This document shows, piece after piece, positions 3,482-43,495 of a stretch of 48,368 bases of DNA. The stretch comes from Minisyncoccota bacterium (GTDB lineage Bacteria > Patescibacteriota > Minisyncoccia > Phycocordibacterales > UBA9973), in assembly GCA_017992305.1 (NCBI GenBank), contig JAGOOX010000001.1, positions 1 to 48,368 of the forward strand. Reading direction: 5' to 3'. The notes beneath the pieces were generated by a model, which saw only the letters and a program-made list of their open reading frames with translations, made no database searches and was not told the origin of the DNA. Numbering within the stretch: the stretch's first letter is position 1; every line of letters starts with the position of its first letter. Position numbers and translations under genes: made by a program.

Positions 3482-5782
3482 ATGGGATTTTTCAATTTTG
3501 GAGGCGATATACGCGAAAAGACAAAGAAAAAATACACTCCTTTTGCGGAGCTTGTTAATAAGCACGAACCTGAATTGGCCAGCAAAAGTGCTGATGAATT
3601 AAAGGCTATTGTTGCTGATTTAAAAACAAGGGTTAGTGAAAAAGGTTTTGACGAATACGTCGAATCAATGGCTTTTGCGTTGGTGCGCGAGGCTTCAAAG
3701 CGCACGATTGGTCAACGTCATTACGACGAACAAATAATTGGTGGCAAAATCATTCACGAAGGCAACATTGCTGAAATGCGCACGGGTGAGGGTAAAACAT
3801 TGGTTGCAACATTACCTGCATTTTTAAATTCATTGTCAGGCAAGGGTGTGCACATTATTACTGTTAACGATTTCCTTGCACGTCGTGATGCTGGTTGGAT
3901 GGGGCAGGTATTTAATTACCTAGGTGTAAGTGTTTCGGTCATTGGTGGTCAAACTTCATTTATGTATGACCCTAGCGTTGTTGCACCCGAAGATACCAAT
4001 GATGAAGAAGTATTTCGTGTTGTCTATGAAAAACTGCGCCCTTGTACACGCCCCGAGGCTTACCAGGCCGATGTTACCTATGGTACCAATAGCGAATTTG
4101 GTTTTGACTATTTGCGAGACAATTTAATATATAGTTTAGATCAAAAAAACCAACGAGGTCACAACTATGCAATTATTGACGAAATAGACTCTATTTTAAT
4201 TGATGAAGCCCGAACACCATTAATTATTTCACAACCAGCCGAAGATAGTGATGAACTGTATGCAAAATTTGCAGGTATTGCCCGAAATTTGCACGAAACC
4301 GAAGACTACTCAATCGATGAAAAAATGAAGGCCATTCAGCTAACTGATAGTGGTATTTCAAAGACTGAAAATGAAATGGGTGTTGAAAATATTTATACCG
4401 AAAAGGGTATTCGTTATGTGCACCACCTTGAAAATGCAGTACGCGCCAAGGCACTGTACCTAAAAGACCGCGACTATGTTGTTAAAAATGGAGAAGTTAT
4501 AATCGTCGATCCTTTTACTGGCCGTATGCAACCAGGCCGCCGTTGGAGCGATGGATTGCACCAAGCTATTGAAGCCAAAGAGGGTGTTAAAGTCGAGCAA
4601 GAAACTAGAACTGTTGGTTCAATTACATACCAAAATTACTTTAGGTTCTACGATAAACTATCTGGTATGACAGGTACTGCCATGACTTCACGCGAAGAAT
4701 TTTATAAAGTTTACAAAATTGATGTTATACCTGTGCCTACACACCGTGCGATTAAACGTGTCGACCACAATGACCAAATCTTTCAAACTGAAAAAGGTAA
4801 ATTTGCCGCCGTTGCTAAAAAGGTTAAAGAGCTACAAAAAAATGGTCAACCTGTATTGATAGGTACTGTTTCAATTGAAAAAAGCGAATTGTTGTCGGCA
4901 TATTTAAATAGCGAGGGTGTAAAGCATACTGTTTTAAATGCTAAAAACCACGAAAAAGAGGGTGAAATAATTGCTCAAGCCGGCCGACGGGGTAGCGTAA
5001 TGGTTGCCACAAACATGGCAGGTCGCGGTATTGATATTATTTTGGGTGGTATGCCAGTTAATGTAGAAGATCAAGAGGCAATAAAGGCCATGGGTGGTTT
5101 ATACGTTATTGGTACTGAACGCCACGAGGCACGCCGAATTGATAACCAGTTGCGTGGCCGTGCTGGCCGTCAGGGTGACCCGGGCGAAACAGTGTTTTAC
5201 GTATCTCTTGAAGACGACCTAATGCGCATATTTGGTTCAGAGCGTATTAAAACTATGATGGGTCGTTTTGGTATACCCGAAGATCAGCCAATTGAAAACG
5301 GTATGATAACCAAAACTCTTGAAAACGCCCAGGCTAAAATTGAAGGCTTTCATTTTGATGCTCGTAAACACACTTTGGAATACGACGACGTGCTAAGCAC
5401 TCAACGAAACAGTATTTACGCTCGTAGAGCTAAATTGGTTGAAAGCGACAAAGCCCAACTTGATATAGTAATTGATCAAATACGTACAACCTTTACCGAT
5501 GTAGATGCGATTTTTGATGACAAGATAAAGGAGTTTGGCGAGGAGGCTTTTTATAATACCTTCAAGCAAATTTGTTTGTACACTAACGATTTATTATGGA
5601 TCGACCACCTAGAAACTATGGAATACATGCGAAATTCGGTTAATTTGCGTGCCTACGGCCAACGCGAACCACTAGTTGAGTATAAAAAAGAGGGCTTGGA
5701 ACGGTTCAGGGCAATGGAGGTCAACTTTTTGGCCGAATGCTTGAATTTGGTCAAGACTATGCAGGTTCAAAAGGGTCAATAA
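3482..5782 (+). CDS. secA: Preprotein translocase ATPase SecA (766 aa, short form)
   Basis: Motifs MRTGEGKT, DEIDSILIDEARTPLIIS, ATNMAGRGIDI, RIDNQLRGRAGRQGDPG. TGCTATAAT ends at 3472, 9 nt before the ATG. Confidence 0.95.
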   Translation: MGFFNFGGDIREKTKKKYTPFAELVNKHEPELASKSADELKAIVADLKTRVSEKGFDEYVESMAFALVREASKRTIGQRHYDEQIIGGKIIHEGNIAEMRTGEGKTLVATLPAFLNSLSGKGVHIITVNDFLARRDAGWMGQVFNYLGVSVSVIGGQTSFMYDPSVVAPEDTNDEEVFRVVYEKLRPCTRPEAYQADVTYGTNSEFGFDYLRDNLIYSLDQKNQRGHNYAIIDEIDSILIDEARTPLIISQPAEDSDELYAKFAGIARNLHETEDYSIDEKMKAIQLTDSGISKTENEMGVENIYTEKGIRYVHHLENAVRAKALYLKDRDYVVKNGEVIIVDPFTGRMQPGRRWSDGLHQAIEAKEGVKVEQETRTVGSITYQNYFRFYDKLSGMTGTAMTSREEFYKVYKIDVIPVPTHRAIKRVDHNDQIFQTEKGKFAAVAKKVKELQKNGQPVLIGTVSIEKSELLSAYLNSEGVKHTVLNAKNHEKEGEIIAQAGRRGSVMVATNMAGRGIDIILGGMPVNVEDQEAIKAMGGLYVIGTERHEARRIDNQLRGRAGRQGDPGETVFYVSLEDDLMRIFGSERIKTMMGRFGIPEDQPIENGMITKTLENAQAKIEGFHFDARKHTLEYDDVLSTQRNSIYARRAKLVESDKAQLDIVIDQIRTTFTDVDAIFDDKIKEFGEEAFYNTFKQICLYTNDLLWIDHLETMEYMRNSVNLRAYGQREPLVEYKKEGLERFRAMEVNFLAECLNLVKTMQVQKGQ

Positions 5783-7077: not shown

Positions 7078-10000
7078 CTAAAGCGCCTTTACTGCTTCGA
7101 TTATAATACTTTTTTCATCGTTGCGCAATGTAACCTTGCCGGCCAGGCCAATTGGCTCGCCTTTTTCGATAGCTGGGAAGAACTCTTTGAAGTTTTTAGG
7201 GAACACAACGGCCTCGATTGAACCTGTTTTGTCTTCAAGTTTTACAAAAGCCATTTGTTCGTTGTTTTTAGTAAAGATTTTGCGATAACCTATAGGTAAT
7301 ACAACTAACTTTATGACTGTATTTTTTTTAGTACTATCAATAATTTCTTTGATAGTTAGGCTTGATTTGCCGTCATATTTATCTAGTGGGTGACCCGAAA
7401 TGTATAAACCTAGCAACTCTTTCTCCCAGTCTAGTTTTTGTTTTTGGGTTGCAGGTTCGCACACCTCTAGTTGCATAGCACGAGACTCTAGGCCTAATGA
7501 AAATAGTGATGTTTGTTCGGTATTGGCCCCAATTGATTTACGATGCTCAAGTATTTTTTCAAGGCTTTGCATTAATTGGTTGCGTTCGCCAAAATCATCA
7601 AGCGCGCCTGATTGTATCAATGCCTCCATTGATTTTTTATTTAAATTTTTGTGTTGTATGCGCTCGATAAAATTATCAATAGTGGTAAATTTACCATTTG
7701 TTTTACGTTCGTTAATTATGGCTTTGCCAATTTCGTAGCCAAAGTTTTTAATACTTTTTAAACCAAAGCGAATTTTGTCGGTCACGACGCCGTCTTCAAC
7801 CACCGTGGTAAAGTCTGAGAATGATTCATTGACTGATGGGGGTAGTATTTTAAAGCCCATACGTTTAGCCTCGACAATCATTTCAGTTACTGTGTCTAGG
7901 TTGTCAGATTCGCAAGTCAGTACAGCCGTCATGTATTCAGACGGGTAGTGAGCCTTCATGTACGCTGTGCGATATGCGAGCAGTGCATACACGGCCGAGT
8001 GAGATTTGTTAAAACCATAGGCGGCAAATGTTTCGATCATGTCCCATAGTTCCTTGGCGGCGCGTGGGTGCATATCATTTTCAATACAGCCATCAATAAA
8101 GTGGTCTTTTTGTTTGGCCATTTCTTCGGGAATCTTTTTACCTACTGCTTTACGAAACTTGTCAGATTCACCACGTGTATAGCCGGCCAGGTCGGTGGCC
8201 ATTCTCATCACATCTTCTTGGTACACGATAATACCATATGTCGTTTTTAAAATTGGCTCCATGCGAGGGTCTAGGTATTTAATTTTGCTTGGGTTGTGTT
8301 TACGTTCAATATAGTCAGGTATAAAAGCCATCGGGCCTGGTCGGTAAAGTGATGCCATGGCGATTAGGTCTTCAAGTGTCGAAGGCTTTAGTTCTTTTAA
8401 CCATTTTTGCATACCACTAGAGCCGAATTGAAAAACGCTCATTGTTTCGCCACGGCCAAACAATTCGTAGGTTAGTTTGTCATCCATTGGTATATCTTCA
8501 AGTTTGATTTCAATATTGCGAATTTTTTTAACCCGTTCAATTGCCTCGGCAATAATTGAAAGGTTGCGCAAACCCAAGAAGTCGAATTTAGGTAAATTAA
8601 TAATACCTTCGCGGTCGCCCGTGTACATACTGTATTGGGTTATAACCTTAGTTTCGCCTTTGGGGTCAAACTGTACTGGTGAGAAGTCATCGATACGACC
8701 AGTGGGTGATATAACAACGCCGGCGGCATGCACCGAAATGTGGCGCACGTTACCTTCGATTTTTTTAGCCATGTCAATAATTGTTTTGACATCGCGTTCT
8801 GTTTCATATGCTTCGGCCAGTTCAGGGGTTAATTCAAGTGCGCGTTTAATTGTCATAGGGAAGCCTTGTGAGCCCATAGGTACTAATTTTGAAATACGGT
8901 CACCGGTTGAATACGGGTAACCCAATGCACGCGCCACGTCTTTGACCGAACCACGGGCCGCCATAGTACCAAATGTACCAATTTGGGCCACTGCATCAGC
9001 CCCATATTTACCTCGGGCATAGTCAATAATTTCATCGCGTCTAGTGTCGGCAAAGTCCATGTCGATATCGGGCAATGATGGCCGGTCAGGGTTTAGAAAA
9101 CGCTCAAAGAGTAGGCCGTACTTCATTGGGTTAATGTTTGAAATACCAATTAAATATGAAACCATTGAACCAGCGGCCGATCCACGTGTTTGGTTAAATA
9201 TGCCCATGCGTGTTGCATTTTTCATAAAGTCAGACACACACAAAAAATATGATGAATAGCCTTTGTCTTGAATAACTTTTAATTCAAAATTTACACGTTC
9301 AACTATTTCAGGCGTTTTTTCAATTTTGCGATCAATGTAGCCTTGTTCAACTAATTGCAACAATTCGCTTTCAAATGTTGTGCCAGCAGGTATTGGGAAG
9401 GTGGGGAAGAACCATGAACTGGTGTCGATATCAATATCAACTAAATCGGCCACCATCATTGTGTTCTCTACTGCCCCTGGAACATCGCTAAATTCTTCGT
9501 AGGCTGTATTTTGGTCAATGAACGACCAGTTGCCATCCATTTTAAAATTATCACTGTTGGTGTTGATTTTAAGTAATGTGTCGTGGGCCTCGTTATCGTC
9601 GGCGCATAAATAGTGCGAATCCCAAGTACCAACCATGGGTATATTTAATTCCTCTGAAATCTTTTTAATTTCAGGGATGACTTGTTTGTACCATTCGTTG
9701 TAAAAATCAGTTTCTTTGTGGCACATGACCTCTAAAAAGACATCGTCAAAACATTCGGTATAAAACTTTATCAATTCGCGAGCCTCTTTGTAATTTTTAT
9801 TGCGAAGTAGTTGTATAAATTCACTGCCTGGGCAACCCGATAGGCAAATAATACCGGCACCATATTGTTTTAATAGGTCTTTGTCCATGCGGGGTTTGTA
9901 GTAAAAGCCCTCTAGGTTTGCCAGTGAAACCATTTTCATTAAATGTTTATAGCCCTCTAGATTTTTAGCTAGTAGTGTTAGGTGGTAGCGTTTTGTGTCA

Positions 10001-10281
10001 ACACCGGCCTCTTTGTCGAACCGTGTGCGGTTGGCAATGTATGCCTCGACTCCAATGATTGGTTTAATGTCGGCTTTTTTGCAGGCCTTATAAAATTCGA
10101 TTGCGCCATACATTGCACCGTGATCGGTTAGTGCCAGTGCTGGCATATTAAACTCTTTGGCCTTTTTAACCAAATCAGTTACCTTTGATAATCCATCAAG
10201 TAGGGAATAATGCGAATGCACATGCAAATGCACGAAATTTTTAGCATCACCTGTATTAGTCTGTGTCACTTTTTCATCCAT
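7078..10281 (-). CDS. dnaE: DNA polymerase III alpha subunit
   Basis: PHP motif [15 protein letters not shown], palm/fingers [18 protein letters not shown]. Start moved to ATG 10281 (MDEKV...); the ORF-track start 10299 is TTG. Confidence 0.95.
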
Positions 10282-10362
10282 GTTGGTTAAGTATACCAAG
10301 AGGGTGGCTTGTTTGACAAAGATTGCTTTTGTGATATTGTTTAGGTTGAAAAAGATCTTATT

Positions 10363-10794
10363 ATGAACAAAAAATTAAACAAATTTATCGAATTGGTACT
10401 TAAAAAAAGTGACCTTTTTGCATTAGGGGTTTTCTTGCCTGCAAGTATTGTGTTTATTATGGAAAGTATAAGAGTTAACCCTGCCATAGGTTATATTGCC
10501 TTTATTGTAGCTCTTTTTTTGTCAGCAATGGCATCTATGATTGTAAGATGTGTTTATGGCATTATGTCTAAAAATGTTTTTTATAGTTCTGGGGATTTAT
10601 TTTTCCCAATTATTATGTTTATTTTTAGCTCAGTTACTTCTTTGTATTATGTCAATCTATTGCATAGTAGTATTTTAATTTTTTTAATTATTAATTTAAT
10701 TACTGTTGCTGTACCTATACTAATTCCATATATTGCCCACAGGTTTTATGGTATTGAGTATAAACTAGAAGAGGTTAGTTGTGATTCAAAATAA
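10363..10794 (+). CDS. Integral membrane protein (4 predicted TM), unknown function
   Basis: ORF with four hydrophobic stretches. Terminator directly downstream. Confidence 0.55.
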
Positions 10795-10811
10795 TTTTTA
10801 GAAAAGCTGGG

Positions 10812-10837
10812 GCCGAACCGCAAGGTTCGGCTTTTTT
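10812..10837 (+). terminator. Rho-independent terminator
   Basis: GCCGAACC-gcaa-GGTTCGGC plus TTTTTT. Confidence 0.8.
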
Positions 10838-10838
10838 G

Positions 10839-10847
10839 TGTTAAAAT
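10839..10847 (+). promoter_or_regulatory. Extended -10 (TGtTAAAAT) 6 nt upstream of the rnhB ATG; leaderless geometry
   Basis: TG 10839-10840, TAAAAT 10842-10847, ATG 10854. Confidence 0.5.
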
Positions 10848-10853
10848 TGTTTA

Positions 10854-11486
10854 ATGGATATGTTTACTATTGGTATTGACGAAGTTGGGCGGGGGCCGTT
10901 GGCGGGGCCCGTGGCCGTTTGTGCTTTTGGTTTTTGTGTTAGGCAAGACCTAACGCAGGATTTTAATATATTTATTGAAAATGCAAAAACAGAGCATAAG
11001 CTAAAATTGAAGGATTCAAAAAAACTTTCGGCCAAGCAACGCGAAAAATGGTTAGAGGTTATTTTGGATTGGCAAAAGCAGGGTGTATGTGATTTTGCAA
11101 TTACATACGTTTCAAACGAAAATATTGATAAATTTGGTATTGCGCCATGTATTAAAAAAGCTTTGGCTGAGTCGTTAAAAAAAATGCTAGAGCAAAATAA
11201 AATACAGCCTACTAACTGCAAAGTATTATTAGACGGGGGGTTAAAGGCGCCCGATGAATACATAAACCAAGAAACTTTTATAAAAGGCGACGAAGACTAC
11301 CCGCAAATTTCATTTGCATCAATTGTAGCCAAAGTCTCGCGCGACAAAATCATGGCAGATTACGCCAAAAAATACCCCCAATATGGGCTTGATACAAACA
11401 TGGGCTATGGCAGCGCCGCCCACATGCAGGCTCTTAAAACCCACGGCCTAACCCCAATCCACCGCAAAACCTTCACACATCTCTAA
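10854..11486 (+). CDS. rnhB: Ribonuclease HII
   Basis: N-terminal IGIDEVGRGPLAGPVAV; C-terminal region with the SKKLS motif and GYGSAAH. Confidence 0.9.
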   Translation: MDMFTIGIDEVGRGPLAGPVAVCAFGFCVRQDLTQDFNIFIENAKTEHKLKLKDSKKLSAKQREKWLEVILDWQKQGVCDFAITYVSNENIDKFGIAPCIKKALAESLKKMLEQNKIQPTNCKVLLDGGLKAPDEYINQETFIKGDEDYPQISFASIVAKVSRDKIMADYAKKYPQYGLDTNMGYGSAAHMQALKTHGLTPIHRKTFTHL

Positions 11487-11524
11487 AGTGCTAAAATACC
11501 CTTACGAAATAAGGGTATTTATAC

Positions 11525-11553
11525 TTGACTATTTCTATATAAGGTGATATAAT
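11525..11553 (+). promoter_or_regulatory. Promoter of cassette A (TTGACT-17 nt-TATAAT), inside a 60-nt repeat shared with 12258-12286
   Basis: TTGACT 11525-11530, TATAAT 11548-11553. Preceded by the perfect hairpin ATACCCTTA-cgaaa-TAAGGGTAT. Confidence 0.65.
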
Positions 11554-11625
11554 TTTAAGGAAGTCCATATTGGAGGCGGATTCTAGGAACGAACCTATTA
11601 CTGACCGAAGAGTGGCGTTAAAATT

Positions 11626-12165
11626 ATGCACATTTATTTAAGAAAAGACGAAGAATTAGAAAGTGTTATCACGCTTAAAAACACTGAAACAGTACCTCAA
11701 AAATTTTGTGGTCAAACCGTTTGGAACTATGACCTGGTTCCGTACATCGAAATCAATACCGATCTTGAAGCGTTAATGAAAAACGAAACACTTAGAAAAT
11801 TCTTCCTTAGGGCTACACTCATTACGTTTCCAGAGTATCAAAAGATTAATAATCCAAAAAGGAACGGTTGGATTACTCGAGAGTTTGGAGATTATAAATT
11901 GGGTAATGCGACTGCTCAACTTGCACCTGCCAAGTCGGCTGAAACAACTTATTTGCTAAAAGTTGAAACTGATTCATGGCAAGGACTCGTTGATATGGAA
12001 AAATTGCAAAAAAGATTATGGGCCGGTACGATTGCTCCTGTTATTTCTTACGAAAGACAACAGGATAAGCAACACCCACTTACTGTCTTGAAAGAAATTT
12101 TAGGACTGCACAAGTTAAGTGCTTTAAAAAGATTTATTCTTGCAATGAGGTTAACCCGGGCATAA
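11626..12165 (+). CDS. Hypothetical protein, cassette A (179 aa)
   Basis: ORF between the duplicated promoter and terminator. ~72-nt leader. C-terminal tail LHKLSALKRFILAMRLTRA. Confidence 0.6.
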   Translation: MHIYLRKDEELESVITLKNTETVPQKFCGQTVWNYDLVPYIEINTDLEALMKNETLRKFFLRATLITFPEYQKINNPKRNGWITREFGDYKLGNATAQLAPAKSAETTYLLKVETDSWQGLVDMEKLQKRLWAGTIAPVISYERQQDKQHPLTVLKEILGLHKLSALKRFILAMRLTRA

Positions 12166-12184
12166 AGCCTACTTAAGATAATTT

Positions 12185-12216
12185 AAAACCGCTGAAATTA
12201 AGTAAGCGGTTTTTTT
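12185..12216 (+). terminator. Terminator T1 (identical to 12929-12960)
   Basis: AAAACCGCT-gaaattaagta-AGCGGTTTTTTT. Confidence 0.8.
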
Positions 12217-12257
12217 ATTTTTAGCAAAATTACCTTACAAAATAAGGGTATTTATAC

Positions 12258-12286
12258 TTGACAATTTCTATATAAGGTGCTATAAT
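12258..12286 (+). promoter_or_regulatory. Promoter of cassette B (TTGACA-17 nt-TATAAT, TGc extended -10)
   Basis: TTGACA 12258-12263, TATAAT 12281-12286. The 60-nt context is near-identical to 11493-11553. Confidence 0.65.
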
Positions 12287-12366
12287 TACATAGTAAGTTA
12301 TTTTCAAACAGTGACCTAGTAAGCAATGCTGTCGCAAAGTAAATTAGGTACATAAAAAACAAAAAA

Positions 12367-12906
12367 ATGAAACAGGAAACACCTAAAGCAAGTTTGAAGT
12401 TTTTCATTCCCAGTGGGATTGTTGACTCAAGAGAATTTAAAGAAAAAAAGGGTACCTATCATGGCGGTTGTGGCGAATGGTCACCAACAGGAGCCGGATT
12501 TATTCAGTACTCTCATGAATTTTTACACCTACAGCCATCATCCTTTATTTCAGACGATCTCTTACGGTATTTAAATGAAAATGCAACAAGAGTCGTTTTG
12601 CAAATACCGGCGGTACCAAACGAAAAAGTTATTAAAGGTTTAAGGCCTAAAGATAGCACTATTCAAGCAAACCAGGAGAAAGAATTTTCTATTCAGTTAG
12701 GTAAAAGAAGAATCTCAGGTATGAATTGTCAAATACAAAGTTCCTCGTTTGATCTTATCTTTGAAGGTAAATCTTCAAAAGATGTTTTTGAGACATTTCA
12801 CAGTTTTGCACCAGGCTATTTTCCTCAATCTTCTTTTATTCCAATTACTCATTTTTTGAGTGGAATGAATTTTTTTAGAAGGTTGCGTTTAGTTTTTGGT
12901 AAATAA
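12367..12906 (+). CDS. Hypothetical protein, cassette B (179 aa)
   Basis: Same length as cassette A with the same flanks. C-terminal tail THFLSGMNFFRRLRLVFGK aligns with the cassette A tail (H-x-L-S-x4-F). Confidence 0.6.
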   Translation: MKQETPKASLKFFIPSGIVDSREFKEKKGTYHGGCGEWSPTGAGFIQYSHEFLHLQPSSFISDDLLRYLNENATRVVLQIPAVPNEKVIKGLRPKDSTIQANQEKEFSIQLGKRRISGMNCQIQSSSFDLIFEGKSSKDVFETFHSFAPGYFPQSSFIPITHFLSGMNFFRRLRLVFGK

Positions 12907-12928
12907 GCACAAAACAAAATTTTTATCA

Positions 12929-12960
12929 AAACCGCTGAAATTAAGTAAGCGGTTTTTTTA
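12929..12960 (+). terminator. Terminator T2 (identical to T1; bidirectional, also downstream of fmt)
   Basis: Same 32-nt sequence as 12185-12216. Confidence 0.8.
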
Positions 12961-12976
12961 TTTCTAGATAATTTTT

Positions 12977-13834
12977 TTAGTGCAAATAATTTTTTTGAAA
13001 TTCAGTAAATGAAATTGGTTTTTTGCCTTCGGGGGTTACTGTTGTGGGGGTGAAGGTTTCGTTAATGAATTCAGCTTCATTGATTTTTACATGCATAGGA
13101 ATGCCCGCGTGTTCGATTTCAAAATAAAGCCCTGGCCATGGGTAATGGGCGCGCCACTTGGCCCACAATGTTTTTGCATCGTCAGTTAGACTTATTTTAG
13201 CGTCTAGTTTTTTAGTTTTGTGTGTAAATGTGGCCAGGTCATGTTTTTGGTCAATTGAATTTGTTTCGCCCGCTAACCATTTAGGTATAACATCGGCTAA
13301 CATTTCGCCACCAACTTTAAATAAATTTATTGCCATATCGTGGGCAAATTCATTGCCACCTAGGTGCACCAAGTGTTGGGCTAGTATTGGCCCATGGTCA
13401 ACCATAGGGTCTAGTAATATTATAGTTACACCAGTTTTGTCATCACCATTTAGTATAGGGCCAATTTCGGGCGCAGGGCCACGGTATAATGGCAATAGTG
13501 ATGGGTGCACATTTAAAAATCCGTATGGTACCGCATCTAACAAATTAGCCGGCAAGATTTTGCCATAGGCGGCCACAACTGCATATTGTGGTTCGTATTT
13601 TAAAATTTCATCGATGGCTGACTGGTCAATTTTGGCGGGTTGCAATACGGGTATATTGTTTGCTATGGCAAAGTCTTTGGCTGGTGGGGCAGTTAGTATT
13701 TGTTTGCGGCCAACACGCGCATCGGGCGAACAAACAATTAGTCTTGGCAAAAAACCAGAATTTTTCAATGACTCTAATGCATGTACCGCGTATTCAGGTG
13801 TGCCAAAAAATACAAATTTATTATTTTCGCTCAT
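12977..13834 (-). CDS. fmt: Methionyl-tRNA formyltransferase (short, 285 aa)
   Basis: FFGTPEYAV N-terminus, LNVHPSLLPLYRGPAP motif. Immediately downstream of def. Confidence 0.9.
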   Translation of the reverse strand: MSENNKFVFFGTPEYAVHALESLKNSGFLPRLIVCSPDARVGRKQILTAPPAKDFAIANNIPVLQPAKIDQSAIDEILKYEPQYAVVAAYGKILPANLLDAVPYGFLNVHPSLLPLYRGPAPEIGPILNGDDKTGVTIILLDPMVDHGPILAQHLVHLGGNEFAHDMAINLFKVGGEMLADVIPKWLAGETNSIDQKHDLATFTHKTKKLDAKISLTDDAKTLWAKWRAHYPWPGLYFEIEHAGIPMHVKINEAEFINETFTPTTVTPEGKKPISFTEFQKNYLH

Positions 13835-14440
13835 TTATTTTGTCTCTAGTTCTTCGGGTAAAATCTCTTCGACGTCGATGGCTTTATCAATAAATAAAAC
13901 TCCGTTTAGGTGGTCAATTTCATGTTGAAAAATGTGGGCCAATAATCCACCCGCACCACGTACATGTAATTTGGCTGTATGGTCATGGTATTTAATGGTT
14001 ACGTTTGTGTGGCGTTTAACCTTGCCGTATAACCATCGTACTGATAGGCAACCTTCGCCTTCTTTTAAAACTAATTTTTTTGAAGCCTTTATAATTTCAG
14101 GGTTTATGTAAACTTGGTTTGGGGTAGGGGTTTTTGGTGGGTTTTTTTCATCATCAAATACTTTGCCCGACACCATAAATACACGTAGGTTTATACCTAT
14201 TTGCGGTGCGGCAATAGCTACGCCATCACTTTGTGAATCAAGTGATGCTGACATATCGGCAAGCATTGATTTAAATTTTGGACTAGTTATATCAGCTAGC
14301 TTTACGTCTTTACTGATTTTACGCAGTCGGGCGTCGCCATTGGTAATTATTTTATCTACCACTTTTTTAGCAGAGGTTTTAGCTAGGCCAACCGATTTTT
14401 TTATAGTTTTTTTAGCAATGTTTTTATCCATACGGATCAC
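13835..14440 (-). CDS. def: Peptide deformylase with a Lys-rich N-terminal extension
   Basis: Motifs GVAIAAPQIG, EGCLS, HEIDHLNG. GTG start at 14440 overlaps the hisS stop by 1 nt; alternative ATG at 14431. Confidence 0.9.
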   Translation of the reverse strand: MIRMDKNIAKKTIKKSVGLAKTSAKKVVDKIITNGDARLRKISKDVKLADITSPKFKSMLADMSASLDSQSDGVAIAAPQIGINLRVFMVSGKVFDDEKNPPKTPTPNQVYINPEIIKASKKLVLKEGEGCLSVRWLYGKVKRHTNVTIKYHDHTAKLHVRGAGGLLAHIFQHEIDHLNGVLFIDKAIDVEEILPEELETK

Positions 14441-15750
14441 TATTTAAGCTTTTTAAGGTATTCAGCTAGGGCGCTTAGTTTAATAGTTTCTTGTTTACGA
14501 TTGTGCATGTCGCGTACAATAACAGTGCTGTCGATGGCTTCTTTGTGGCCAAAAATTAGAGCATAGGGTACACCTGATTTTTCGGCAATGGCTAGTTGTG
14601 TGCCCAGTGTGTCTTTTGAAATTGATTGCATTATTGGAATATGAGCCAAGCGTAATTGTTCAACAACGTTCAAACTTTTTAATTTAGCTTCAAGGCCAAG
14701 TTGAATAAAGTAAACTTTTGGTTTTTTCATTATACGAGGTTCAAGCTTTTTGTACCAAGATGATTCAATAACACGGTCTACACCAAAAGCCATACCCATA
14801 GCAGGTAGTTCTTTTTTAGCGCCTAGTGTTTTGGCTAAATAGTCGTAACGTCCTCCACCACCTAGTGTTAGTGGGGCTTCGGTGCCATCGCCCATTTCAA
14901 TAATTTCAAAAACGGTGTGGGTGTAATATGACAAACCGCGTACCAGGTTTTTGTTAATGCGGTATGAAATATTCATTTCATCTAAATATTCTAGTACTTG
15001 TTTAAAGTGTTTTTTGCCACTTGCTGACAGGCTTGCCACTGAATCAGGCGCACCTTCGTTGATTTTAATTGTTTTAGGGTCTTTTGAATCAAGTATACGC
15101 AACGGGTTTGTTTTCAAACGTTCGCGATCAATAGGTGGAAGGTCAGATAGGTGTTTTTTGTAGTAATTGGTTAGTTCTTTAATATAACCCGGGCGAGATT
15201 CTTTGTCACCAATTGAGTTAATGTCTACGATTATTTCTTTGGCACCGGCTTCTTCTAGTATACAAACAGCAGTTTTAATAATTAGTGCGTCGGCAATGCT
15301 TTTTTCAGTACCAAGTATTTCTAAATTAAATTGTCGAATTTCGCGGTAGCGACCATTTTGTGGGTTATCGTGACGGTAAACTGGGCCATAACTATATAGC
15401 ATAACTGGTTGAGGCATTGATTGCATACCGTTTTCAAAATACGCACGCATGATTGATGCAGTGTATTCGGGTCGCAATGCTAATTTATCGCCACCTTTGG
15501 TTTTAAGGGTGTACATTTCTTTGTCGACGATGTCGGTGCCTTCACCTACACCACTGACCCACAAAGATTCTTGCTCCATTACAGGTGTTTCAATTGGTTT
15601 AAAACCATAGTACATGGCTATTTCTTGGGCCTTTTCAAAAAAACCTTGGTAGTGGTAATATTTTTCATTCAAAATGTCACGCATACCACGAACTGATTGG
15701 GCAATTTCCTTCTTAGGTTCTTTATTCTGATTTGTTTTTTTATCTGGCAT
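14440..15750 (-). CDS. hisS: Histidyl-tRNA synthetase
   Basis: Class II motifs: RGMRDIL, LRPEYTASIMR, YRHDNPQNGRYREIRQF, GGGGRYD. Confidence 0.95.
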   Translation of the reverse strand: MPDKKTNQNKEPKKEIAQSVRGMRDILNEKYYHYQGFFEKAQEIAMYYGFKPIETPVMEQESLWVSGVGEGTDIVDKEMYTLKTKGGDKLALRPEYTASIMRAYFENGMQSMPQPVMLYSYGPVYRHDNPQNGRYREIRQFNLEILGTEKSIADALIIKTAVCILEEAGAKEIIVDINSIGDKESRPGYIKELTNYYKKHLSDLPPIDRERLKTNPLRILDSKDPKTIKINEGAPDSVASLSASGKKHFKQVLEYLDEMNISYRINKNLVRGLSYYTHTVFEIIEMGDGTEAPLTLGGGGRYDYLAKTLGAKKELPAMGMAFGVDRVIESSWYKKLEPRIMKKPKVYFIQLGLEAKLKSLNVVEQLRLAHIPIMQSISKDTLGTQLAIAEKSGVPYALIFGHKEAIDSTVIVRDMHNRKQETIKLSALAEYLKKLK

Positions 15751-42672: not shown

Positions 42673-42953
42673 CAAATAATAAAAACCGAAGGCAACGGCC
42701 TAAGGTTTTTATTTTATGTGGCAGAGAGGTTCGAACCGTAGGCGCACATTTTATAATGCGCGTTTCGACCGTAGGAAGAGGCGAATCCTGCTCGGCGCAC
42801 AAATGATAAAAACCTAGGTTATAACGGCCTAAGGTTTTTATTTTTTGTGGCAGAGAGGTTCGAACCGCAGGCGCCAATTTTTAAGAAATAAAAACTGTGC
42901 GTCTCGACTGAAAGGAGAGGCGAATCCTGCTCGGCGCACAAATGATAAAAACC
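42655..42953 (+). repeat. Three direct copies of the tRNA-Tyr 3' end plus flank (33 nt), within a ~127/139-nt tandem repeat
   Basis: cgaatcctgctcggcgcacaaat(a/g)ataaaaacc at 42655-42687, 42782-42814 and 42921-42953. aacggcctaaggtttttatttt.tgtggcagagaggttcgaaccg is also duplicated (about 42694-42738 and 42823-42867). Confidence 0.85.
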
Positions 42954-42974
42954 CTTTTAAAGCAAAGGGTTTTT
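42947..42974 (+). terminator. Rho-independent terminator after the third repeat copy
   Basis: AAAAACCCTTT-taaagc-AAAGGGTTTTT. Confidence 0.75.
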
Positions 42975-42978
42975 ATCA

Positions 42979-43007
42979 TTGACAAATAATCTTTTATCTG
43001 CTATAAT
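42979..43007 (+). promoter_or_regulatory. Promoter TTGACA-17 nt-TATAAT (TGc extended)
   Basis: TTGACA 42979-42984, TATAAT 43002-43007. Confidence 0.65.
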
Positions 43008-43027
43008 ATACAAGACTGATCAGCACC

Positions 43028-43495
43028 ATGAAAAAAGAAAAATATAGAAAAATAATCGTAGCACTTTTAATGTGCTTTGTTGCTAATATTGCTTTAGCAC
43101 AGAACAATGTTGGAATTATTCGTTTCCCAAAAAACACCAAAATAACAACAACGGGTCATTTTGTGACCGTGTGTACAGATTCACTAATAAAAATTAAAGG
43201 TTATTGTGTTAGGCAAGAAAAAGCGGTTTACACTAATGCAAAAACACAAAACAACTCTAATGGTCCCTCAACAAGAGGCTTTACAATATATCATTTGCCA
43301 GGCGAGGACACTCTCAATTACCGTGACTATATATATTTTGATAACATTTACATAATGTATCAAGGGGAAAAAAGTATATTGGTCATGCCGTTTTTATCTA
43401 ATTTCGAACAATTAGATTTAGGTCTGATTAAAATATATGAGACATACCTAGCAATAGTTCGAGACTCTAACCAAAACATTTACCAAGCAGAATAA
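43028..43495 (+). CDS. Secreted hypothetical protein (signal peptide ...IALA-QNN)
   Basis: MKKEKYRKIIVALLMCFVANIALAQ signal. No recognisable domain. Confidence 0.55.
   Translation: MKKEKYRKIIVALLMCFVANIALAQNNVGIIRFPKNTKITTTGHFVTVCTDSLIKIKGYCVRQEKAVYTNAKTQNNSNGPSTRGFTIYHLPGEDTLNYRDYIYFDNIYIMYQGEKSILVMPFLSNFEQLDLGLIKIYETYLAIVRDSNQNIYQAE

Follow-up and report, generated by a model that had tools for sequence, protein, structure and literature searches.

Why do two genes for apparently unrelated proteins lie in tandem between two core genes, each behind nearly the same promoter and ahead of the same terminator? The question is raised by the interval between rnhB and fmt in the genome of a Minisyncoccota bacterium (assembly GCA_017992305.1, contig JAGOOX010000001.1, positions 1 to 48,368 of the forward strand); this whole stretch of 48,368 nucleotides is referred to below as the window. 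The assembly comprises 609,211 bp in 52 contigs, is 87.6% complete, and represents a genome of the candidate phyla radiation (CPR) type, of 0.6 Mb. We propose, with a probability of roughly 0.6, that the interval holds two autonomous single-gene units for unrelated orphan proteins, which were stacked at a turnover spot by recombination through their promoter and terminator modules. The features of the locus are as follows.

10854–11486, forward strand: rnhB (RNase HII), a core gene and the upstream bound of the variable interval; open reading frame (ORF) with orthologues 53–89% identical in 6/6 congeners.
11493–11524, forward strand: hairpin AAAATACCCTTAC-GAAA-TAAGGGTATTT, the 5' part of module P1; −12.4 kcal/mol, z = −4.6.
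11525–11553, forward strand: promoter P1, TTGACT, 17-nt spacer, TG-n-TATAAT; predicted from sequence, with 11/12 consensus positions and an extended −10.
11560–11625, forward strand: leader 1, the structured 5' untranslated region (UTR) of the ORF1 family; nested hairpin at about 11563–11616 with inner stem 11575–11606, by RNAalifold and covariation.
11626–12165, forward strand: ORF1, a basic orphan protein of 179 aa with no signal peptide or transmembrane segment; ORF with homologues in metagenomes.
12185–12220, forward strand: terminator T1, stem AAAACCGCU/AGCGGUUUU, 11-nt loop and U-run; −11.0 kcal/mol, 36 nt identical to T2.
12226–12257, forward strand: decayed copy of the hairpin (ATTACC for ATACCC), the 5' part of module P2, identified by alignment; −6.1 kcal/mol, against −12.4 for P1.
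12258–12286, forward strand: promoter P2, TTGACA, 17-nt spacer, TG-n-TATAAT; predicted from sequence, with 12/12 consensus positions and an extended −10.
12293–12366, forward strand: leader 2, the structured 5' UTR of the ORF2 family; hairpin at 12311–12351, by covariation, with a single-sequence z of −2.3.
12367–12906, forward strand: ORF2, a basic orphan protein of 179 aa; ORF with an invariant Cys35, an HLQ motif and a PG-FP motif in the alignment of homologues.
12928–12963, forward strand: terminator T2, of the same sequence as T1, by repeat alignment.
12977–13834, reverse strand: fmt (methionyl-tRNA formyltransferase), a convergent core gene and the other bound of the interval; ORF, with Formyl_trans_N in the orthologues at the related loci L004 and L027.

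The two units are delimited by two direct repeats. The first, D1 (11493–11554 and 12226–12287), is 62 nt long and 92% identical, P1 and P2 differing at 5 positions. The second, D2 (12185–12231 and 12928–12974), is 47 nt long and 91% identical, and its first 36 nt are the same in both copies. Each repeat pair encloses one ORF of 179 aa (11626–12165 and 12367–12906). Two matches to either pattern were obtained in 0/100 shuffles, and a fuzzy search of the 609-kb assembly finds the full promoter (P) and terminator (T) modules at these two places alone. P1 and P2 are the two highest-scoring promoter matches of the region. Eight bases separate the end of the hairpin stem from TTGACT or TTGACA, and the distance from the end of the −10 box to the ATG is 72 nt in unit 1 and 80 nt in unit 2.

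These results bear out the original prediction, which described two tandem units with near-identical promoters and terminators, leaders of about 72–80 nt and an ORF of 179 codons in each. Its hairpin just before the −35 box is present in module P1, and the copy in P2 is degraded. Its coordinates hold for the first terminator and are off by one for the second, which runs from 12928 to 12959 rather than from 12929 to 12960. It had also counted generic flanking repeats as grounds for abandoning the idea: the hairpin-plus-promoter design and the hairpin type do occur family-wide, but the specific copies of 62 nt and 36–47 nt are unique to the two units. An exact 20-mer of the P module has one match in the JGI metagenomes, which is unrelated, and the T module is not conserved in same-family genomes beyond generic terminator similarity. 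The sequence AGTGC(T)AAAT, which occurs close to either end of the array, was considered as a short flanking repeat and set aside as chance, its right-hand copy lying inside the coding end of fmt.

The comparison of the interval in relatives finds four states, given here with the identity of RnhB to that of the window.

G101: fmt lies 63 nt after rnhB, and the left arm and loop of the hairpin remain (RnhB 78%).
G028: one unrelated ORF of 221 aa with an N-terminal hydrophobic segment (RnhB 89%).
L027, a metagenome contig: hairpin-promoter, leader 2, an ORF2 homologue (80%) and terminator (RnhB 87%).
Window: two units, ORF1 then ORF2.

Both ORFs are sporadic accessory genes. In six-frame searches, ORF1 and ORF2 were found in 0/150 genomes of the same family, six congeners included. 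A profile search finds the ORF1 family in 12/400 genomes of the order, each from a different family, and no member of the ORF2 family (0/400); no relatives of either protein were found in IMG/VR, nor among GTDB species representatives (pattern scan). The surroundings, with a dnaE/polC-type polymerase, rnhB, fmt, def and hisS, are those of a core locus. The idea of cassette-type accessory genes amid a core neighbourhood agrees with this picture, in that the units are self-contained and the interval differs between congeners. We read the gap between rnhB and fmt as a turnover spot within the genus. The GC content at third codon positions is 0.31 for ORF1, 0.25 for ORF2 and 0.30–0.41 for the neighbours, which makes ORF2 slightly atypical. 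It may be added that in G028, the closest congener, the 221-aa ORF (L012:811–1476, reverse strand) starts 21 nt after the rnhB stop codon, without modules of the P or T type, and that in the window TGTTAAAAT sits six bases 5' of the rnhB ATG.

L027 carries the same promoter and terminator modules as the window, its terminator being T1/T2 minus one loop base. The two loci differ by exactly one block, consisting of leader 1, ORF1, T and P or, equivalently, of P, leader 1, ORF1 and T. The P module of L027 is a mosaic, P1-like on the left (ATACCC, TTGACT) and P2-like on the right (GGTGC, then leader 2), as a crossover between P1 and P2 would give. Since the difference is a single block, the P and T modules would appear to serve as handles for recombination rather than to be left over from a gene duplication. 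In the more distant homologues of either gene, promoters and terminators bear no relation to those seen here, which argues that the shared flanks are recent and local, and again not what remains of an old gene duplication.

On the basis of these observations, we hypothesise that the lineage earlier carried a single unit consisting of hairpin-promoter, leader 2, ORF2 and terminator, as L027 still does. A unit of 733 bp would then have been inserted or deleted when a single homologous crossover took place in the P (or T) module. If the partner was a circular or alien copy, the result would be a gain here; if P1 recombined with P2 in a relative, it would be a loss in L027. Within the array, each unit would be expressed independently. 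Incoming transcription would be stopped by the upstream hairpin, acting as rnhB terminator, at unit 1, and by T1 at unit 2, where the copied hairpin would be decaying. Each transcript would start from a sigma-70 promoter that is close to consensus and has an extended −10, and the first 65–75 nt of the transcript would be a family-specific folded leader controlling translation or mRNA stability; the 179-aa ORF would then be translated, and a strong intrinsic terminator would close the transcript.

Several points weigh against this proposal. The mosaic in L027 rests on three informative sites, neither an ORF1-only allele nor a circular intermediate was seen, and no ORF1 donor above 50% identity occurs in any database searched, the nearest being at about 49%. 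The promoter cores at C41:2832 and C3:4394 of the assembly are nearly as similar (26/29 and 25/29) as P1 and P2 are (27/29), and hairpin copies elsewhere in the genome are as similar as P1 is to P2; the similarity of P1 and P2 is partly a matter of shared consensus. To these may be added the basic amphipathic helix at the C-terminus of each protein, whose hydrophobic moment (0.54–0.66) is no higher than that of internal helices.

The role of the hairpin before the −35 box has to be considered separately, because the first of the alternative explanations depends on it. The hairpin lies directly 3' of the rnhB stop codon both here and in L027 (−12.4 and −13.3 kcal/mol), and its left arm is retained in the empty site of G101. 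Hairpins of this type (A-tract, ACCCTTA, loop of 4–5 nt, TAAGGGT, T-tract) are present in 74/150 same-family genomes, where the gene most commonly found downstream encodes a secreted glucosaminidase-like protein of about 190 aa. The alternative is that the hairpin sequence, ACCCTTA-N5-TAAGGGT, serves a transcription factor as its operator rather than being a terminator, and that ORF1 and ORF2 belong to a family-wide regulon with this cell-wall enzyme as its core target. The half-sites are indeed 88–97% conserved in the 74 genomes, while the 4–5-nt spacer is free to vary and can even be inverted. In 17/19 loci inspected, there is a TTGAC −35 box 8–11 nt (mostly 8–9) beyond one end of the stem or, in some cases, beyond both, and the same palindrome is found 5' of at least seven non-orthologous genes.

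However, the family-wide matches mostly represent one orthologous locus. This genome itself has more than 15 related A-tract/CCCTTA hairpins, with A- and T-tract flanks and compensatory stem variants (AGCCTTA/TAAGGCT, ACCCTTT/AAAGGGT, ACCCTG/CAGGGT), and many of them have no adjoining promoter, as would be expected of bidirectional terminators. Moreover, the copy in P2, which has T1 upstream of it, has lost its pairing although the promoter beside it is still perfect, and in a distant ORF2 relative the hairpin found at this position differs in sequence. For these reasons the hairpin reads as the rnhB terminator, that is, as a terminator of bidirectional type or an insulator that abuts the next promoter, and the operator explanation is unlikely.

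Some further observations on hairpins of this kind are worth recording. In the hairpin at L027:470–488, the loop is the exact reverse complement of its counterpart in the window (TTTTG, compared with CAAAA/CGAAA in the hairpins at 11498–11516 and 12231–12249) while the stems are the same, a small loop flip within a palindrome. A unit of the same design is found at 42945–43495, where an A-tract/CCCTTT hairpin immediately precedes TTGACA-17-TG-n-TATAAT; after these come a short leader and an orphan ORF of 155 aa with a signal-peptide-like N-terminus. Similar units occur at C41:8569 (79-aa ORF) and C24:6516 of the assembly. In same-family genomes from many genera, the palindrome AAAATACCCTTA-N5-TAAGGGTATTTT is kept 5' of one orthologous secreted glucosaminidase-like gene of about 190–215 aa (L051, L055, L056, L058, L059, L061 and L064–L068, at about 1507–1540 of each). 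There it often stands between two outward-facing TTGAC boxes, with tandem promoters and a 5' UTR of 140–180 nt, carrying a hairpin of its own, 3' of the palindrome. A cell-wall hydrolase may be regulated from this conserved region.

The proteins themselves have been further analysed. The metagenomic homologues of ORF1 are 44–49% identical to it and 181–184 aa long. A hidden Markov model (HMM) of the family, run against 1.84 billion representative proteins, retrieves 55 clusters (50% identity), of which 48 fall below 1e-10, and the conserved motifs are FLKAT, R-x2-G-x-Y and W-A-G-T-I-x-P-x3-Y-x3-Q. Homologues of ORF2 are 60–81% identical, with a more distant set at 30–46%; Cys35, H-L-Q and P-G-x-F-P are invariant. 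Both families are conserved to an ordinary degree: ORF1 is 47% identical between the window and L004, whose Fmt proteins are 38% identical, and ORF2 is 80% identical in L027, where RnhB is 87% identical. The genes occur in varied places. Homologues of ORF1 are found directly after tRNA-Asn (L004), beside a methyltransferase-type DNA-repair gene (L026) and among small orphan ORFs; those of ORF2 after smpB and the transfer-messenger RNA (tmRNA) gene (L007), 280 nt after tRNA-Gly (L029), beside an epimerase (L089), between housekeeping genes (L033), and between rnhB and fmt (L027). No neighbouring gene is common to the homologue loci of ORF1 or of ORF2, and genomic context therefore gives no functional clue.

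Three of these loci or groups show additional features. Distant members of the ORF1 family, of the 'MSVNVYLK...' type and 215–225 aa long (L035, L040, L043 and L047, from GTDB genomes of the order), have an extra C-terminal extension resembling a coiled coil, and one genome, G153, has two copies. In L004, a 53-nt intergenic direct repeat (5598–5650 and 7531–7583, 83%) encloses two orphan genes, for 316 and 154 aa, after the ORF1 homologue. In L007 (4273–4853), the ORF2 homologue lies about 330 nt after the tmRNA gene, which scores 114.9 bits with Rfam and was missed by ARAGORN; a perfect copy of the 18 nt at the 3' end of the tmRNA occurs 184 nt further on, and an inverted copy lies in the interval. 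The repeat has the appearance of an att-like scar of a departed integrating element, and the ORF2 unit lies outside the repeat pair.

Could ORF1 and ORF2 nevertheless be ancient tandem paralogues, the payload of an effector or immunity system of polymorphic type, whose coding sequences have drifted too far apart to be recognised, with regulatory flanks and length unchanged? Both proteins have 179 aa and end in a basic amphipathic helix, and the predicted secondary-structure elements follow a similar order in both AlphaFold2 models (three strands, helices, four strands, a helix and the C-terminal helix). Against this, BLASTP finds no similarity between them (E = 3.3), the hhalign probability is 0.4% when the profiles are shallow (7 vs 9 sequences) and 0.1% when they are deeper (42 vs 14), and the search with the ORF1-family HMM retrieved no member of the ORF2 family. 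The models were built from shallow alignments, with a mean predicted local distance difference test (pLDDT) score of 72 and a predicted template modelling score (pTM) of 0.60 for ORF1, and 68 and 0.69 for ORF2. Neither matches a common fold in the PDB: Foldseek gave no match at E < 1e-3 and no template modelling (TM) score of 0.4 or more for either model, and the same result against BFVD, where the ORF2 model only was searched. Each family shows ordinary conservation and has its own unrelated leader, the homologues elsewhere lack the shared flanks, and the close relative L027 holds ORF2 alone.

On this evidence ORF1 and ORF2 appear to be two separate, ordinarily conserved orphan families without detectable homology, and paralogy is quite improbable. 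The 'fast-diverging payloads' of the original prediction are accordingly better described as members of different families, each evolving at ordinary rates. The tail motif H-x-L-S-x4-F to which it pointed is present in both sequences, but its H and S are not conserved in the ORF2 family or in the wider ORF1 family, and it is probably due to chance. The fixed length holds for these two proteins but not for their families, whose ranges overlap (about 158–232 and 165–195 aa); the equal length is weak support at best for relatedness.

A third explanation is that selection brought the two genes together as a functional pair, such as toxin and antitoxin, effector and immunity protein, or other antagonists. 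The genes are adjacent and in the same orientation, and near-identical promoters would give them matched expression. They would not be co-transcribed, however, as a predicted strong terminator and a promoter lie between them. The partners also occur apart in every relative seen: the L027 interval has ORF2 only, L004 has an ORF1 homologue only within 10 kb, and in the order the two families differ as noted above (12/400 vs 0/400). Neither gene has a PADLOC match. The proposal of paired antagonists thus finds no support, and we regard a functional pair as very improbable. Finally, that the tandem is a metagenome assembly artefact, in which strain alleles rnhB-P-ORF1-T-fmt and rnhB-P-ORF2-T-fmt were joined through shared modules, is hardly credible. 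The assembly is fragmented and incomplete, and the repeats (62 and 47 nt) are about as long as an assembler's k-mers. But the junction of T1 with P2 (12217–12230) is unique and present in neither putative allele, and assembly software could not have made it up; in addition, there are 5 differences between P1 and P2, and the flanks of T differ too, all of which argues against an assembly collapse.

Little can be said about function. The proteins have net charges of +5 and +6 and no hydrophobic segment, and neither matches Pfam, NCBIfam, PHROG, PADLOC or PDB sequence profiles above noise. That they are abundant, basic, cytoplasmic proteins is a weakly supported guess, and the C-terminal amphipathic helix may possibly hold them at the membrane.

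The most novel elements of the units are the leaders. Leader 1 consists of GAAGUCCA-N-AUUGGAGGCG, a hairpin, and CGACCGAAGA-N-UGGC. It is about 79% identical in nucleotides to the leader in L004, compared with 38% for Fmt and 47% for the ORF1 protein between the same genomes. Four base pairs show compensatory changes and 97.8% of the cells are paired; 3/500 shuffles were as good, and slid controls gave 28–41%. In leader 2, the hairpin GUGACUUAAU ... AUUAAGCAC encloses a small UGC-N4-GCA stem, and the A-rich tract that comes next has no Shine-Dalgarno sequence. This leader is kept at all ORF2 homologue loci whatever their context, with 7 pairs showing compensatory changes and 0/500 shuffles as good. 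These alignments hold 5–7 sequences each, partly from close kin. The leader of each family accompanies its gene into every context seen, of which there are at least six different ones. Neither leader has a further copy in this genome, and neither belongs to a family of Rfam 15, the best matches being terminator look-alikes far below the gathering scores. The distant ORF1-family genes in GTDB genomes have consensus promoters and leaders of about 100–130 nt, in which nested hairpins, a CCAGUAA loop that recurs and a purine-rich stretch for ribosome binding are seen, on a rough alignment with weak support.

In their general design the leaders resemble autoregulatory mRNA leaders and riboswitches, being folded 5' UTRs with covarying stems and conserved unpaired bases, tied to one protein family across distant genomes. 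They differ from these in that no Rfam family matches and that they are known here as candidates read from sequence alone. We therefore regard both as good candidate regulatory RNAs rather than established ones. It is worth adding that leader 1 (11572–11616, and likewise in L004, L022, L025 and L026) contains a conserved GGAGG about 50 nt from the start of ORF1. Three to six nt after it, an AUU or AUA codon (AUG in L026) opens a frame of 7 codons to a conserved UAA; in the window the frame has 14 codons and its stop lies 7 nt before the ORF1 AUG. A leader peptide is possible.

Several known systems are similar to the locus in part. In T4-type phages, promoter-early stem-loop (PeSL) cassettes, present in about 50 copies, flank ORFans, and recombination between the modules has been shown experimentally to give indels, replacements and mini-circles (Arbiol et al., 2010; PMC2839356). 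The locus described here shares with them a compact intergenic terminator stem-loop and a strong sigma-70-type promoter beside single genes of unknown function in variable regions: the predicted −12.4 kcal/mol hairpin directly precedes a promoter of 11/12 consensus positions, and the second promoter has 12/12. In both, the modules hold the breakpoints of the insertions, deletions or replacements that distinguish close relatives, which here is seen in one comparison, that of the window with L027, as the single-block difference and the mosaic P module. A crossover between two modules would likewise release a small circle, here of about 733 bp and carrying ORF1. There are also clear differences. 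The units studied here lie between core genes of a bacterial chromosome of the CPR type and not in a hyperplastic region of a phage. Two near-identical copies are present, with looser modules 5' of other orphan ORFs (42945–43028, C41:8569), compared with about 50 in the phages. Lastly, the units here add long gene-specific leaders and a separate 3' terminator, and neither circles nor recombinants were seen. PeSL shuffling, which has the module design and the pattern of breakpoints in common with the locus, is the closest known system.

Two other comparisons are less satisfactory. Phage morons are autonomous units of promoter, gene and terminator inserted between two prophage genes. Like them, the units here have one gene with its own promoter and terminator between unrelated neighbours and absent from relatives; but the neighbours are core genes, there are no nearby phage genes, PHROG matches or IMG/VR relatives, and no BFVD fold match for ORF2, so a moron in a prophage was rejected. 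Integron cassettes are promoterless and end in attC sites, which are recombined by an adjacent IntI integrase. They too are single-gene units in tandem that could be gained or lost as circles. Here, in contrast, a consensus promoter precedes each ORF, the repeated sequences are those of ordinary promoters and terminators, and no integrase-like ORF is found at 9500–15000; this candidate was also rejected.

A combined and more far-reaching proposal is that the leaders are undescribed cis-regulatory RNAs tied to orphan families of Paceibacteria-type CPR bacteria, the protein for example binding its own mRNA, and that the modules are PeSL-like handles by which single, ready-to-express genes pass from one of these tiny genomes to another as small circles. 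Taken as a whole this is doubtful, and we offer it as a tentative suggestion.

Genomes of CPR bacteria (Patescibacteria) are tiny and rich in orphan genes, and little is known about how their genes are gained or controlled. For T4-type phages, turnover of this kind, with promoter and terminator modules as the joints, has been documented; we did not find it in the literature for CPR/Patescibacteria. The findings change no major question. The locus does provide a clean and small example of the turnover of single genes between core genes, in which the copies of P and T mark the recombination joints. Its most novel part is the leaders: two orphan protein families are each always found with a folded mRNA leader of their own, and these leaders are candidates for new regulatory RNAs.

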